Part shown: piece by piece, positions 2,378 through 55,381 of the stretch | How the letters are laid out: every line of letters begins with the position of its first letter | How positions within the stretch are numbered: the first letter of the stretch is position 1 | Sequence record: PZ053912.1 | From: a phage | Length of the DNA stretch: 64,000 nt | Strand: one strand, 5' to 3' | Notes under the pieces: model-generated | The model's database searches: none | What the model was told of the DNA's origin: nothing | Seen by the model: the letters and a program-made list of their open reading frames with translations, nothing else | Made by a program: the position numbers and the translations under genes

Positions 2378-4703
<2,326 letters not shown>

Positions 4704-11138: not shown

Positions 11139-12707
11139 ATGACTACTATCAAAACTAAAGCTCAGCTCGTAGACAAATGGAAAGAACTGCTGGAAGGTGA
11201 AGGCCTGCCGGAAATCGCTAATAGCAAGCAGGCTATTATCGCTAAAATCTTCGAAAACCAGGAAAAAGATTTCGAAGTATCCCCTGAATATAAAGACGAG
11301 AAAATCGCTCAGGCATTTGGTTCTTTCTTGACCGAAGCTGAAATTGGTGGTGACCATGGTTATAATGCTCAGAACATCGCAGCAGGTCAAACCTCTGGTG
11401 CAGTAACCCAAATTGGGCCGGCAGTTATGGGTATGGTTCGTCGTGCTATTCCTAATCTGATCGCTTTTGATATTTGTGGTGTTCAGCCTATGAACAGCCC
11501 GACCGGTCAGGTATTTGCTCTCCGCGCAGTATATGGTAAAGACCCTATCGCTGCTGGCGCTAAAGAAGCTTTCCATCCGATGTATGCCCCAGACGCGATG
11601 TTCTCTGGTCAGGGTGCTGCTAAGAAATTCCCAGCTCTGGCTGCTGACACTACTACTGTTGTAGGTGATATCTATACTCACTTCTTCCAAGAAACTGGTA
11701 CTGTATATCTGCAAGCTTCTGCTATCGTAACACTTGATTCTGGTGCAACTGATGCAGCTAAATTAGATGCAGAAGTTAAGAAACAAATGGAAGCTGGTGC
11801 ACTGGTAGAAATCGCTGAAGGTATGGCTACTTCTATCGCTGAACTCCAGGAAGGTTTCAACGGTTCTACCGATAACCCATGGAATGAAATGGGCTTCCGT
11901 ATCGATAAACAAGTTATTGAAGCTAAATCTCGCCAGCTGAAAGCTGCTTACTCTATCGAATTAGCACAAGACCTTCGTGCAGTACACGGTATGGATGCTG
12001 ATGCTGAACTGAGCGGTATTCTGGCTACAGAAATTATGCTAGAAATCAACCGTGAAGTTGTTGATTGGATTAACTACTCTGCACAGGTTGGTAAATCTGG
12101 TATGACCCTGACTCCGGGTTCTAAAGCTGGTGTATTTGACTTCCAGGACCCGATTGATATCCGTGGTGCTCGTTGGGCCGGTGAAAGCTTTAAATCTCTG
12201 TTGTTCCAGATTGATAAAGAAGCAGTTGAAATTGCTCGTCAAACCGGTCGTGGTGAAGGTAACTTCATTATCGCTTCCCGTAACGTAGTTAACGTACTGG
12301 CTTCAGTTGATACTGGTATTTCTTATGCTGCACAGGGTCTGGCTTCTGGTTTTAATACCGACACTACTAAGTCTGTATTTGCCGGTGTACTTGGTGGTAA
12401 ATACCGCGTATACATCGACCAGTATGCTAAACAGGATTACTTCACCGTTGGTTACAAAGGCGCTAACGAAATGGATGCAGGTATTTACTATGCTCCTTAC
12501 GTTGCACTTACCCCACTGCGTGGTTCCGATCCTAAGAACTTCCAGCCGGTAATGGGCTTTAAAACTCGTTACGGTATCGGTGTTAACCCGTTTGCTGAAA
12601 GTTCCCTGCAGGCTCCAGGTGCTCGCATCCAGTCCGGTATGCCGTCTATCCTGAACAGCCTTGGTAAGAACGCTTACTTCCGCCGTGTATATGTAAAAGG
12701 CATCTAA
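11139..12707 (+). CDS. 23: major capsid protein gp23
   Basis: 522 aa; near-identical to remembered T4 gp23 over most of its length; followed by strong hairpin terminator. Confidence 0.98.
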   Translation: MTTIKTKAQLVDKWKELLEGEGLPEIANSKQAIIAKIFENQEKDFEVSPEYKDEKIAQAFGSFLTEAEIGGDHGYNAQNIAAGQTSGAVTQIGPAVMGMVRRAIPNLIAFDICGVQPMNSPTGQVFALRAVYGKDPIAAGAKEAFHPMYAPDAMFSGQGAAKKFPALAADTTTVVGDIYTHFFQETGTVYLQASAIVTLDSGATDAAKLDAEVKKQMEAGALVEIAEGMATSIAELQEGFNGSTDNPWNEMGFRIDKQVIEAKSRQLKAAYSIELAQDLRAVHGMDADAELSGILATEIMLEINREVVDWINYSAQVGKSGMTLTPGSKAGVFDFQDPIDIRGARWAGESFKSLLFQIDKEAVEIARQTGRGEGNFIIASRNVVNVLASVDTGISYAAQGLASGFNTDTTKSVFAGVLGGKYRVYIDQYAKQDYFTVGYKGANEMDAGIYYAPYVALTPLRGSDPKNFQPVMGFKTRYGIGVNPFAESSLQAPGARIQSGMPSILNSLGKNAYFRRVYVKGI

Positions 12708-12730
12708 TCTTAATTGATTAAATCTTATTT

Positions 12731-12755
12731 TGGGAGACTTCGGTCTCCCATTTTT
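12731..12755. terminator. bidirectional intrinsic terminator (UUCG-loop hairpin) after gene 23
   Basis: tgggagacTTCGgtctccca palindrome followed by TTTTT; A/T runs on both sides. Confidence 0.75.
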
Positions 12756-12759
12756 GGTT

Positions 12760-13029
12760 TTATTTCTGTGCAATTTCGATGTAAGTTTTCAAAATATTTT
12801 GCCAATTAGGCATACCTTCTTGGACATATGCTAGAGAACCGTCTTTGTTTTTGAATGATGCAAGTTTATCAGTGGCCCAATAACCTTTAGCTCGAGCTTC
12901 AGAATCAACTTTCATCCATACTTTGTTGAAGGCATTACCATTAACTTTTGCACCATATTTTTCTACTAACTTAACTGCTTCAGCTTCTAGAACTTTTAAA
13001 GTATCTCGTAAGAAACGTGCTTTAGTCAT
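12760..13029 (-). CDS. hypothetical protein (89 aa), antisense to the late capsid genes
   Basis: ORF on minus strand with GAGGAG RBS, early-promoter-like motif upstream and hairpin terminator downstream; no recognisable domain. Confidence 0.6.
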   Translation of the reverse strand: MTKARFLRDTLKVLEAEAVKLVEKYGAKVNGNAFNKVWMKVDSEARAKGYWATDKLASFKNKDGSLAYVQEGMPNWQNILKTYIEIAQK

Positions 13030-13059
13030 TTTGTTTACTCCTCTGTAGTTGATAAGTCT

Positions 13060-13089
13060 ATAGTATCACATACCAAATACGTTGTAAAC
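13060..13089 (-). promoter_or_regulatory. early-type promoter (GTTTAC-N18-TGnTACTAT) for antisense 89-aa gene
   Basis: Minus strand GTTTAC, 18 nt spacer, TGaTACTAT, about 30 nt upstream of the ORF start. Confidence 0.5.
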
Positions 13090-13095
13090 AATCTT

Positions 13096-13103
13096 TATAA
13101 ATA
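13096..13103 (+). promoter_or_regulatory. late promoter (TATAAATA) for gene 24
   Basis: Exact TATAAATA about 28 nt upstream of gene 24 ATG. Confidence 0.65.
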
Positions 13104-13130
13104 ATCTATATCACATAAGGAAAAAATGCA

Positions 13131-14414
13131 ATGAGTAAAATCCAAAAATTATTGCGTGAATCTACAACGTCTACTAGCAACTCAGTTGGTCGCCCAAATC
13201 TCGTTGCTTTGACTCGCGCTACGACTAAATTAATATATTCTGACATTGTAGCAACACAAAGAACTAATCAACCTGTTGCTGCTTTTTATGGTATCAAATA
13301 TCTTAACCCAGATAACGAATTCACATTTAAAACTGGTGCTACTTATGCAGGCGAAGTTGGATATGTGGACCGAGAAAAAATTACTGAGCTCACAGAAGAT
13401 TCAAAAGCCACACTAAATAAAGGCGATTTTTTCAAATATAATAATATCGTCTATAAAGTGTTAGAAGATACACCGTTTGCAGATATTCAAGAAAGTGATC
13501 TAGAACTAGCTCTTCAGATTGCAATCGTTCATTTAAAGGTACGGTTATTTTCAGATGCAGCGGTAACAAGCAAATTTGAAAGCTCTGATAGCGAAATTTC
13601 TGATGCAAGATTCCAGATTAATAAATGGCAAACTTCAGTCAAATCTCGTAAACTTAAAACTGGTCTCACGGTTGAATTAGCACAAGATTTGGAAGCGAAT
13701 GGATTTGATGCCCCTAACTTCTTAGAAGATTTGCTTGCTACTGAAATGGCTGATGAAATTAATAAAGATATTCTTCAGTCTTTAATTACTGTATCTAAAC
13801 GCTATAAAGTTACTGGAATTACTGACACCGGATTTATTGACTTGAGCTATGCATCCGCTCCAGAAGCAGGTCGTTCATTATATCGAATGGTGTGTGAAAT
13901 GGTATCACACATTCAAAAAGAGACAACTTATACTGCAACGTTTTGTGTAGCCTCAGCTCGTGCAGCTGCTATTCTTGCTGCTTCTGGTTGGTTAAAACAT
14001 AAGCCAGAAGATGACAAGTATCTTTCACAAAATGCTTATGGATTCTTGGCAAATGGATTACCTCTTTACTGCGATACCAACAGCCCGTTAGATTATGTTA
14101 TTGTGGGTGTTGTAGAAAATCTCGGCGAAAAAGAAATTGTAGGGTCCATCTTTTATGCTCCATACACTGAAGGAGTGGATTTAGATGACCCGGAACATGT
14201 CGGTGCATTTAAAGTTGTAGTTGATCCAGAAAGCTTGCAACCGTCTATCGGATTATTGGTTAGATATGCCTTATCAGCAAATCCTTACACAGTAGCAAAA
14301 GATGAAAAAGAAGCGAGAATAATTGATGGCGGGGACATGGATAAAATGGCAGGACGTTCAGACTTGTCTGTTTTACTCGGTGTTAAGCTACCAAAAATTA
14401 TCATTGATGAATAA
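13131..14414 (+). CDS. 24: capsid vertex protein gp24
   Basis: 427 aa (same as T4 gp24); gp23 paralog; late promoter TATAAATA upstream. Confidence 0.95.
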   Translation: MSKIQKLLRESTTSTSNSVGRPNLVALTRATTKLIYSDIVATQRTNQPVAAFYGIKYLNPDNEFTFKTGATYAGEVGYVDREKITELTEDSKATLNKGDFFKYNNIVYKVLEDTPFADIQESDLELALQIAIVHLKVRLFSDAAVTSKFESSDSEISDARFQINKWQTSVKSRKLKTGLTVELAQDLEANGFDAPNFLEDLLATEMADEINKDILQSLITVSKRYKVTGITDTGFIDLSYASAPEAGRSLYRMVCEMVSHIQKETTYTATFCVASARAAAILAASGWLKHKPEDDKYLSQNAYGFLANGLPLYCDTNSPLDYVIVGVVENLGEKEIVGSIFYAPYTEGVDLDDPEHVGAFKVVVDPESLQPSIGLLVRYALSANPYTVAKDEKEARIIDGGDMDKMAGRSDLSVLLGVKLPKIIIDE

Positions 14415-14420
14415 AACAAA

Positions 14421-14443
14421 AGGGACCTTACGGTCCCTTTTTC
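14421..14443. terminator. bidirectional terminator between gene 24 and rnlB
   Basis: agggaccTTACggtccct hairpin flanked by A-run and T-run between convergent genes. Confidence 0.7.
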
Positions 14444-28653: not shown

Positions 28654-28683
28654 AACGTTTTCCTCATGTTGTTGATGGGATGA

Positions 28684-28711
28684 TAGTATCACACATCCAT
28701 GTGTTTGTAAA
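28684..28711 (-). promoter_or_regulatory. early-type promoter (GTTTAC-N16-TACTAT)
   Basis: Same motif family; directly downstream of alt stop, upstream of the 97-aa ORF. Confidence 0.45.
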
Positions 28712-30799
28712 CTATCCTTGGACAAATTTAAACGGAACTGATTCTAAATCCATTAAAGATGCTAACAATTTCAATCCTTTAGGAGCACTAGTTTTTTCTA
28801 CAAACGTGGAGAACGATACCAGCTCATCTGATTCGATTTCACCCGTCATAGCAACCACCTCGCCTGTTTCCATGAGAACATCACCGTCGTAAATGACAGC
28901 TTCGTCCAACTGGTCTGAGGACATGACTTCAGCTTGAATAAATTTAAGGTTGGATTCTAAACCTGCACCAGTGTCAGATGACGCATCTGTAATTTTATTT
29001 ATCTGCAAGAGAATGCCTCTAGGCAAAATAATTTCTTGCTCGTTAGGGTGATTACTCAACTGTCCAGGATAAATCACGTTAACTTTATGGGCGCCATCAA
29101 TAGCCCATCCAACGTTAACACGGATTTGGTCTGGTGCATGCATAGCTGTTCTTACTTGACTAGGAGAAATAGTAACACCTTCGTCATTATTGTCAATGTT
29201 AAGCTCTTTGCGAACTTCTTCAGGAGCAAGTCCAAGGGCAACGTTCTCTTTAAACCCACCGAAAATAATAGGAGCTAGTGAAGTGGAAACATAGTTTCTG
29301 AAGTAGAATACCTTATTTTTAACCATTGCTTCGTAAATAGGCATTCTGATAGACTGAGCTCTATATAACGTTAGTCCTTCAGGTAAACGGTCTCCATTTA
29401 AAAACGCTGAATCAAGACCATCAATAGCGCGCTTAACTTCATCTTCATCTGCAACATCGTAAAAATCTGGTTTATAACGACCTAACAACATATTATTGAT
29501 ATCGGTATACGCAGAAGAGGCATATTCACGAATAGCTCGTTTTTCAGCAACAGAGTATTGTTTAGGGTCCCGATTCATTGTTATATTAAAGGTGCCTCTA
29601 GCCGATTCTCGTGCATAAGTATACATCACATTAGACAAGAACGCTGATTTACGTTGTTTCCAAGTTCTTTCAGATACTTCAGCTAAAACATCGTCAGGCA
29701 GTTGGAAATTATCACGTCTAAAATCTTCAAACCATTCGTCTCTAATAGAGTCTGCAATTTCGTTTGCAGCTTCAACAAAAGCGGCTAATGCTTTAACAGA
29801 TGTTGTTTTTTCAGTTTTAATTTTCTTAGCAAACTTTTCTAAAGTCGGCTTAATAACACTACCATAAGAAACTTCATCAGCAAATTTAAAGGATTCATCA
29901 ATACGATTATAAATCTTATTTTCGATATCAGCAACTAAAGTGCCTTTTGCTGTGGACGATGCTTGGGCTAGTACAATTTCATATGCTTCAGGAAGTAATT
30001 CGGCTGTAGCCGGGCCACTAACTTCTTTAGCAGAATTTTCGTATTTCTGGAATAACTCACCTTCTTGTCGGTCAGCTTCTAAAGATTGACTTGCTGCAAT
30101 AGCACGACGAGAAATTTTAGTACGAGCAATAACAGGCTTATCTTTACGTTTTTCTTCTACAGCAGCAATAGAACCAGCGATAGCCGTTTCTTTGGTGACC
30201 TTTTCGCCAGTCTTTTTACTCACATAAACTTCGCCAACATCAGAATCTACTTTCGTGTACAACTCTGTGTTAATGTTAGGGATGCCTTTAATATCTTCAA
30301 TGTTGGCATTTTTACGAACCATCATCACATAGGTGTGTTTACCTGTGAATTGATACATTGCCGACAATACTTTAAAACGACCACCGGTTTTAGTAGAAAC
30401 TAAACGAGCAAGAAGAGTTTGAAGTTGTTGTCCACGGCCTTTCAATTTCTTGGTAGGGAACCGGAACAGAACTGCATCCATACGAAGAGCTTTAACCTGT
30501 TCATATACTGTATTGAAAATAGTGTTGATTGCATCAATAGGAGCAGGACCAAGGCCATTTTTCAATTCAGCGAGATTGCCCTTTTCAGATAGACTCATAA
30601 TAACAACATGAGCGTATTTGTCGCCAAGTTTAACTTGTTTTACAGCATCACCTTCGGAAAGGTAAGAGAATAAGCGAACTACGATGTTTGTATCGATATC
30701 ACCAATTTTCCAGACTTGTGGAACTTTAGCTTTAGGGTTCAAATTGACGACAGGAAGACTGCCTTCAGATTCAAACACTTCATTTAATTGTTCAGACAT
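28712..30799 (-). CDS. alt: Alt-like mono-ADP-ribosyltransferase (packaged RNAP-modifying enzyme)
   Basis: 695 aa (T4 Alt 682 aa); R...STS...ExE arrangement (LYRAQS, YVSTSL, EQEIILPRG); position between 54 and ligase as in T4. Confidence 0.85.
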   Translation of the reverse strand: MSEQLNEVFESEGSLPVVNLNPKAKVPQVWKIGDIDTNIVVRLFSYLSEGDAVKQVKLGDKYAHVVIMSLSEKGNLAELKNGLGPAPIDAINTIFNTVYEQVKALRMDAVLFRFPTKKLKGRGQQLQTLLARLVSTKTGGRFKVLSAMYQFTGKHTYVMMVRKNANIEDIKGIPNINTELYTKVDSDVGEVYVSKKTGEKVTKETAIAGSIAAVEEKRKDKPVIARTKISRRAIAASQSLEADRQEGELFQKYENSAKEVSGPATAELLPEAYEIVLAQASSTAKGTLVADIENKIYNRIDESFKFADEVSYGSVIKPTLEKFAKKIKTEKTTSVKALAAFVEAANEIADSIRDEWFEDFRRDNFQLPDDVLAEVSERTWKQRKSAFLSNVMYTYARESARGTFNITMNRDPKQYSVAEKRAIREYASSAYTDINNMLLGRYKPDFYDVADEDEVKRAIDGLDSAFLNGDRLPEGLTLYRAQSIRMPIYEAMVKNKVFYFRNYVSTSLAPIIFGGFKENVALGLAPEEVRKELNIDNNDEGVTISPSQVRTAMHAPDQIRVNVGWAIDGAHKVNVIYPGQLSNHPNEQEIILPRGILLQINKITDASSDTGAGLESNLKFIQAEVMSSDQLDEAVIYDGDVLMETGEVVAMTGEIESDELVSFSTFVEKTSAPKGLKLLASLMDLESVPFKFVQG

Positions 30800-39498: not shown

Positions 39499-39528
39499 AT
39501 AGTATCACAACTCCACCATGTTGTAAAC
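39499..39528 (-). promoter_or_regulatory. early-type promoter (GTTTAC-N18-TGaTACTAT)
   Basis: Motif on minus strand about 30 nt upstream of the 78-aa ORF. Confidence 0.45.
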
Positions 39529-43030: not shown

Positions 43031-43060
43031 ATAGTAACACCTTCCTTGGTGTTTGTAAAC
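43031..43060 (-). promoter_or_regulatory. early-type promoter (GTTTAC-N18-TGtTACTAT) upstream of alc
   Basis: Motif on minus strand in the rnlA-alc gap. Confidence 0.5.
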
Positions 43061-44214: not shown

Positions 44215-44244
44215 ATTGTACCACAATCCTTGTGGCATGTAAAC
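44215..44244 (-). promoter_or_regulatory. early-type promoter (GTTTAC-N18-TACAAT) upstream of rnlA
   Basis: Motif on minus strand; spacer contains palindrome CCACAAGGATTGTGG. Confidence 0.4.
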
Positions 44245-55351: not shown

Positions 55352-55381
55352 ATAGTAACACACTCATTTGAAAGCGTAAAC
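55352..55381 (-). promoter_or_regulatory. early-type promoter (GTTTAC-N18-TGtTACTAT) upstream of rnh
   Basis: Motif on minus strand about 33 nt upstream of rnh ATG; back to back with the gene 34 late promoter. Confidence 0.5.

Follow-up and report, generated by a model that had tools for sequence, protein, structure and literature searches.

The accessory ORFs, or "morons," of T4-type phages are small and dispensable, carry their own sigma-70 early promoters, are present in some genomes and absent from others, and are exchanged between phage backbones (PMC1524935, PMC2993671). About 90% of novel ORFs cluster among the early and middle genes (PMC1524935). In T4, the gap between genes 23 and 24 is the site of segD, which encodes a free-standing GIY-YIG homing endonuclease of 223 aa. 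According to a review from 2010, no segD-specific promoter could be found and segD transcripts were probably vanishingly low (PMC2988022); in the supplements of a time-resolved study from 2022, segD is entered as "early RNA, middle protein," and the intensity of its protein increases in the course of infection (PMC9697503).

Here we compare with these systems a small ORF that encodes a protein of 89 aa and occupies the same gap in the window, by which we mean the whole 64,000-nucleotide stretch of phage DNA that was analyzed (record PZ053912.1). The window is a Mosigvirus genome (an RB69-like T-even phage), and its small ORF belongs to a known kind, the small early accessory ORFs of T4-like phages: it shares with the morons the small size, the sigma-70 early promoter of its own, the dispensability, the presence/absence polymorphism, and the exchange between backbones. 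Unlike them, it is embedded alone in the late head-gene cluster, which is its only unusual trait and one that it has in common with segD in T4, and it has no clear terminator to itself, sharing the terminator hairpin of gene 23. We give a probability of roughly 60% to the explanation that the locus is an early expression unit in an exchangeable cargo slot, encoding a nonessential accessory factor of the host takeover or counterdefense type. Three rival explanations, namely, a passenger of segD, a capsid helper, and a role at the RNA level, were rated below it and are weighed with the evidence that bears on them.

Results

Genes 23 (major capsid protein, 11139-12707) and 24 (capsid vertex protein, 13131-14414) are both on the plus strand, form the left and right flanks of the slot, and are separated by a 423-bp gap at 12708-13130. 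The region 12650-13180 is 100% identical to the corresponding sequence of Escherichia phages HX01, JS09, DCP548, and others, all of them Mosigvirus. The preliminary description of this DNA had placed in the gap an 89-aa ORF opposite to the two late genes, with a GAGGAG ribosome-binding site. The ORF list and the sequence confirmed an ATG ORF of this length at 12760-13029 on the minus strand, and at 13038-13043, as read on the minus strand, the Shine-Dalgarno sequence GAGGAG precedes the ATG by 8 nt. Either GGAG or GAGGAG is kept at the same site in all relatives in our alignment of the upstream sequences. The gene, its early promoter, and the terminators are already in public records and are not new as features: record OL960576 marks the early promoter, the late promoter, and the terminators of the interval, and an evenly spaced tblastn sample contained 29 annotated Mosigvirus records, every one of which labels the protein "hypothetical protein." The "hypothetical protein" SA79RD_184 (UIU27163.1), for instance, lies in the gp23/gp24 gap of a Mosigvirus at the same position and on the same strand as the ORF of the window.

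The protein belongs to the PHROG 6003 family, with residues 1 to 89 matching positions 1 to 90 of the 90 positions of the phrog_6003 profile (HMM search, E value = 7.2e-45); the family match thus spans the full length, and the RB69 genes RB69ORF188c and 189c are broken remnants of the same gene. A full-text literature search with phrog_6003 and the RB69 ORF names retrieved no paper. By tblastn, the protein was found in 240 phage records, comprising about 120 Mosigvirus copies with at least 94% identity and about 119 copies with less than 60% identity, nearly all of which belong to Dhakavirus and Gaprivervirus. Full-length, syntenic homologues with 28 to 38% identity are present in Dhakavirus, in Gaprivervirus, and in metagenomic T4-like contigs; in VR20, JS10, and three metagenomic T4-like contigs, the homologue lies antisense in the gap between gene 23 and gene 24. 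Within Dhakavirus, where dS is unsaturated (0.08 to 0.69), dN/dS ranged from 0.03 to 0.13, which shows that selection acts on the protein itself. In comparisons between genera, synonymous sites are saturated, and yet the protein can be aligned end to end. These results indicate, from the family match, the distribution, the synteny, and the selection taken together, that the 89-aa ORF is a real gene and that its protein is under strong purifying selection. The GC content of the ORF is 0.344, against 0.381 for the window, and its GC3 of 0.22 is close to that of gp24 and hoc. The window holds no paralogue, the next best six-frame match having a score of 11.8 bits.

Homology searches and structure prediction, both of which the preliminary description had proposed, gave a confident fold and no relative that points to a function. 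The AlphaFold2 model, made from an 18-sequence alignment, had a pLDDT of 94.4 and a pTM of 0.80 and predicted a helix (residues 3 to 25), a second helix (31 to 48), a beta-hairpin (52 to 60 and 66 to 70), and a third helix (76 to 88). M1, K3, F6, N30, G31, N32, N35, A45, and Q70 are invariant in the family alignment. The protein is basic (pI 9.6), and the family is hydrophilic, with a pI of 9.2 to 9.9 in 17 of its 18 aligned members. This charge hints at an acidic partner or a nucleic acid, and it could also do no more than mirror Lys-rich coding in an AT-rich genome. An exhaustive profile search against 1.84 billion representative sequences returned five full-length clusters of the family, one truncated copy (P0022), and three artifacts, with no relatives beyond phage ORFs. 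Among the artifacts, P0024 and P0025 (996 and 1,347 aa) are not remote homologues, their scores being driven by many weak repeats, and neither is P0026, a likely assembly chimera with a tail that closely matches a Dhakavirus copy. A match to Pfam DUF4859 (E value = 0.0032, 17.8 bits versus a gathering cutoff of 22.6) was rejected as chance; it appeared in only 3 of the 18 members, all of them near-identical Mosigvirus variants. Profile searches of NCBIfam, PADLOC, and PDB gave no match, no specific fold match was found in PDB or BFVD, and no homology to a characterized antidefense or host takeover inhibitor was detected in sequence or structure.

Upstream of the ORF, the sequence GTTTAC-N18-TGaTACTAT at 13060-13089 had been described as an early-type promoter, and the sequence and a pattern scan bear this out. 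On the minus strand, the element consists of GTTTAC (the reverse complement of 13084-13089), an 18-nt spacer ending in TGa, and TACTAT (the reverse complement of 13060-13065), and it can be written as GTTTACA-N13-TGTGATACTAT. It scored 9 of 12, with TG, in a sigma-70 scan and has the makeup of a T4-type early promoter, that is, a GTTTAC(A) −35 box and an extended −10 box (TGn-TAnnnT) at a spacing of 17 to 18 nt; transcription would start near 13053 on the minus strand. In the 64-kb window, the pattern GTTTAC-N14-RTGNTAYTAT is found six times, always on the minus strand, compared with 0.02 matches expected by chance from shuffled sequence; one of the six deviates by a single mismatch, and the other five, including the site at 13060-13089, are exact. 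The five matches elsewhere in the window, likewise on the minus strand, are at 28683-28712, 39499-39528, 43031-43060, 44215-44244, and 55352-55381 and are likely the early promoters of downstream small ORFs. Four of these five lie in stretches where only minus-strand genes are annotated (the neighborhoods of alt, cd, and rnlA), and the match at 55352 lies past the annotated stretch. Several of them fall inside the 3′ or 5′ parts of annotated minus-strand genes (for example, the end of alt and within rnlA).

The promoter is conserved together with its surroundings. The late promoter of gene 24, TATAAATA, at 13096-13103 on the plus strand, which was identified in the sequence and is annotated as a late promoter in OL960576, stands back-to-back with the early promoter, with 6 nt separating it from the −35 box; in the direction of the ORF, it makes up the A/T-rich region upstream of the early promoter. 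Fourteen distinct upstream sequences share a single layout, in which the reverse complement of the late promoter is followed by 6 nt, GTTTAC(A), a variable spacer, and (G/A)TG-TA(C/T)TAT. The start-to-start offset from TATTTATA to GTTTAC is 14 nt and is invariant in all occupied slots with an exact GTTTAC. At least three genera have kept the −35 box and the extended −10 box, with free drift of the spacer between them, and the exact 30-nt pattern recurs in 20 related loci, including those of RB69 and mogra, phages in which the ORF is broken. Empty slots lack the early promoter, and there the late promoter and the gene 23 terminator stand next to each other, which indicates that the early promoter travels with the cargo.

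As first described, segD is at this locus in T4, and we found it there in the slot and orientation of the small ORF, antisense to its neighbors, with its likely promoter at a distance of 6 nt from the late promoter box of gene 24. The description of the window protein as unrelated to SegD also appears correct, given that Pfam showed no GIY-YIG or endonuclease domain in its 89 aa, as against the 223-aa endonuclease of T4. Upstream of segD, at the homologous position, T4 has the element ATTTAC-N14-ATGATATTAT, one mismatch away from the Mosigvirus pattern (NC_000866, 107253-107282, equivalent to 2454-2483 on the minus strand of the T4 locus in our survey, L029). This element probably explains the expression of segD, and the early segD RNA is indirect experimental support, by analogy, for early activity at this promoter position. 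A literature search for Mosigvirus transcript data or a Mosigvirus transcriptome found none. The match to the phage's own promoter pattern, the conserved boxes, and the T4 segD data all point to early expression and favor the proposal that the locus is a stand-alone early-type unit antisense to late capsid genes.

At the other end of the ORF, the hairpin TGGGAGAC-TTCG-GTCTCCCA at 12731-12750 consists of a tetraloop on a stem of 8 bp, 5 of them GC pairs. Its fold energy was −16.8 kcal/mol on the plus strand and −13.5 kcal/mol on the minus strand (z scores versus shuffles, −3.8 and −4.3, respectively), and it is conserved in Mosigvirus, Dhakavirus, and other contigs. On the plus strand, the stem is followed by TTTTTGGTTTT, a U-run, and we therefore take the hairpin to be the intrinsic terminator of gene 23 (GGGAGAC-UUCG-GUCUCCC plus the U-run, 12731-12757, plus strand), as the terminator scan, the fold energies, and the conservation also suggest. 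A terminator has been predicted downstream of gene 23 in six of the six genomes compared, those of T4, RB69, and four other T4-like phages (PMC1524935). On the ORF strand, the hairpin lies 9 nt past the ORF stop and is followed by AAAAUAAGAUUU (AAAATAAGATTT), with no U-tract, so that the 3′ end of the mRNA is not defined. The preliminary description had called the hairpin a bidirectional terminator. The hairpin and its role on the plus strand stood up to analysis, but the bidirectional reading is not supported for the window phage, as the scan called 12731-12757 on the plus strand only and the ORF strand has no U-tract. Record OL960576 lists a WebGeSTer terminator on the ORF strand, and T-runs on both sides of the hairpin were seen only in Gaprivervirus relatives. 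The more likely role of the hairpin on the ORF strand is to stabilize the 3′ end, and read-through would yield an untranslated RNA antisense to gene 23.

Such read-through, which the lack of an ORF-strand U-tract makes likely, could be taken to mean that the functional product is the RNA, as an antisense or convergent transcript, or transcription itself, modulating the termination of gene 23 or read-through into gene 24, with the ORF incidental. The promoter is indeed kept where the ORF is frameshifted, in RB69 and mogra. Early promoters of T4 are, however, silent when genes 23 and 24 are transcribed, and the phages with empty slots manage with neither the promoter nor the ORF. Moreover, the ribosome-binding site is conserved, the predicted fold is confident, and purifying selection at the protein level is strong while synonymous sites are saturated, all of which make a role of the RNA highly improbable. 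The explanation that we prefer remains an early unit that works through its protein.

We surveyed the slot between genes 23 and 24 in T4-like loci, T4, and the window and found it in four states. In the first state (L030 to L032, L040, and L043 to L045), the slot is empty, without the ORF and the early promoter. The second state, an early promoter with the small ORF, is that of the window and of most Dhakavirus and Gaprivervirus loci. In the third, found in IME341-type Dhakaviruses (L017/L038 and L020), the early promoter and small ORF are joined by a 223-aa GIY-YIG gene (2771-3442, plus strand, in L017), which is 56% identical to T4 SegD and starts 3 nt past the stop of the small ORF on the same strand. 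In the fourth, found in T4 and L042, segD alone lies behind the early promoter (2752-3414 in L042), and the promoter and the start of the leader in L042 are recognizably as in the contigs with the small ORF. Since the two genes stand in tandem in IME341-type phages, the small ORF and segD are not alleles of one gene. Compared across these loci, the slot reads as an exchangeable site for early-promoter cargo, in which the promoter is constant and the cargo is variable. In one of the empty slots (L043, approximately 3392-3510), GTTTTACA follows right after the late promoter box, without a −10 element or an ORF, and may be a remnant of a deleted cassette.

The small ORF itself has two allele types that are about 30% identical. 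In the 173-kb ENA contig k123_278436 (L007), gp23 and gp24 are of the Dhakavirus/Gaprivervirus kind (92 to 93% identical), and the small ORF at 4001-4273, encoding a 90-aa protein, is of the Mosigvirus type (61% versus 28 to 30% identity), which indicates that cassettes have been exchanged between backbones. In one source, the 90-aa protein is called "NADPH-dependent curcumin reductase CurA," which is plainly a misannotation. Outside the slot, distant homologues with 27 to 38% identity were found in Acinetobacter phage ABPH49 (assigned in its record to Vequintavirinae) and in two unclassified contigs. These three homologues (L004, L011, and L012) lie in long same-strand arrays of small unknown ORFs, an arrangement typical of early regions.

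The tandem arrangement in IME341-type phages bears on the possibility that the ORF and its promoter are a passenger of segD-type GIY-YIG homing traffic, moved by coconversion of flanking DNA; the ORF may then serve the homing element, as an expression platform or an immunity factor, and not the phage. A segD-like gene 3 nt downstream on the same strand, segD alone behind a homologous promoter in T4 and L042, and a phylogeny of the small ORF that is incongruent with those of gp23 and gp24 are all as this explanation would have it. Against it, segD is absent from the window and from eight of the nine small-ORF loci of the slot survey, a count kept apart from the roughly 120 Mosigvirus records; the homologues of the ABPH49 type have no adjacent homing endonuclease by annotation or Pfam; any transfer must be ancient, as the two allele types are only about 30% identical; and the low dN/dS values attest to selection on the protein itself. 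We therefore regard the passenger explanation as unlikely and return to an accessory gene that serves the phage.

Disruption of the ORF in close relatives, which the preliminary description had said would count against its reading, was found in RB69, in the mogra lineage, and in the Dhakavirus 310Ecol104PP. The ORF of RB69 is interrupted by two frameshifts, one of +1 and one of −1, and its annotation is split in two, as RB69ORF188c and 189c. Besides the two frameshifts, the RB69 ORF (L005, 5292-5532) contains a 16-nt patch of clustered substitutions, TTTCGGTTACAGATCC versus TAAC-TTAACTGCTTC, which suggests a scar of local repair or recombination and not simple slippage. In the mogra lineage, a run of five A residues has been shortened to four, a deletion that we verified in two long contigs whose sequences differ elsewhere; eight contigs in total encode the resulting product of 51 aa. 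In 310Ecol104PP, a truncated product of 64 aa is annotated. By comparison, all 30 Mosigvirus records of an evenly spaced sample gave a single, uninterrupted tblastn alignment over residues 1 to 89; the population-wide count of intact and broken copies rests on this sample and on the sizes of protein clusters. A scan of IMG/VR with the exact promoter pattern returned no Mosigvirus copy, and the collection seems to be without these genomes. With the ORF broken in the viable phages RB69 and mogra and truncated in 310Ecol104PP, the gene is dispensable, and because its protein is under purifying selection elsewhere, we read the broken copies as the loss of a nonessential gene and not as the mark of a spurious ORF. 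That viable phages have lost the gene more than once would also fit a marginal or niche function. The moron-like character that had been proposed for the gene is in keeping with its presence/absence polymorphism, the exchange of its alleles, and these natural null alleles.

The null alleles are equally relevant to the idea that the protein is a helper of the capsid, such as a chaperone, an assembly modulator, or a decoy for defenses that sense the capsid. Strict synteny with genes 23 and 24 in at least three genera speaks for such a role, as does the parallel with gp31 of T4, the cochaperonin that folds gp23, which is also made before the late genes. The gene is broken, however, in RB69, whose heads assemble normally, and neither T4 nor the phages with an empty slot possess it; in the empty-slot phages, the C-terminal 99 residues of gp23 are 94% identical and gp24 is 95% identical. 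The homologues of the ABPH49 type, moreover, are surrounded by small ORFs of the early type and have no capsid gene closer than about 5 kb, and the early promoter and the antisense strand do not fit the part either. These observations leave a capsid helper very unlikely and turn us back to an accessory factor that acts on the host or on a competitor.

Discussion

Strong purifying selection on a protein whose loss is tolerated marks the gene as one for a nonessential accessory factor, a protein selected for in nature and dispensable in the laboratory. We have high confidence in the gene and its accessory nature and likewise in its early expression, as predicted from the promoter and from the analogy with T4. 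The host's sigma-70 RNA polymerase, still unmodified in the first minutes of infection, would start at the promoter at 13060-13089 on the minus strand, at about 13053, and would produce a short mRNA of about 300 nt if its 3′ end is at the gene 23 terminator hairpin. The hairpin would probably stabilize the 3′ end of the mRNA rather than terminate transcription efficiently, and any RNA reading through it would be untranslated and antisense to gene 23. From the strong GAGGAG site, a soluble, basic protein of 89 residues would be translated, with a predicted fold of two helices, a beta-hairpin, and a third helix, and this protein would most probably act early by binding a host or competitor macromolecule one to one.

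A protein that is small, basic, early, exchanged, and dispensable has the profile characteristic of host takeover or counterdefense factors that bind a target. Judged from this profile and from analogy, an effector role of either kind is a tentative proposal to which we would give slightly less than even odds. In a bolder form, which we consider possible but rather doubtful, the protein would found a family of early phage effectors not described before, its fold would be without structural relatives, and its gene would sit in a slot of the head-gene cluster that is swapped by recombination driven in part by segD-type homing endonucleases. A more specific form of this proposal, suggested by the adjacency of gene 23, is that the protein preempts a host system that senses the major capsid protein.

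As it stands, the gene matters little, being one more catalogued and uncharacterized small early gene of T-even phages. What the present analysis adds to the public annotation is the selection on the protein, the four-state slot with its back-to-back pair of early and late promoters, the exchange of alleles between backbones, the natural null alleles, and the likely promoter of T4 segD. The null alleles of RB69 and mogra, beside near-isogenic phages with intact copies, make the gene a clean candidate for screens for antidefense or host takeover functions, for which the compact expression unit and the confident predicted fold without known relatives are further advantages. To T4 specialists, the four-state slot with a constant early promoter may be of modest interest, and the one-mismatch element of T4, taken together with the published early RNA, offers a simple account of how segD could be expressed.

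Two features of the neighborhood complete the description of the locus. Downstream of gene 24, the genes rnlB, 24.2, 24.3, and hoc are all on the minus strand, and a 10-bp GC-rich hairpin lies at 14418-14441, between gene 24 (plus strand) and rnlB (minus strand). The terminator scan called this hairpin on the minus strand, OL960576 annotates it as a terminator on both strands, and of this hairpin and that at 12731-12750, it is the stronger candidate for terminating transcription in both directions. Two tandem gp24 paralogues stand beside the slot in Dhakavirus, Gaprivervirus, and related contigs (L002, 830-3394; L003, 833-3399; L007, 1337-3901), whereas the window, like T4, has a single gp24.
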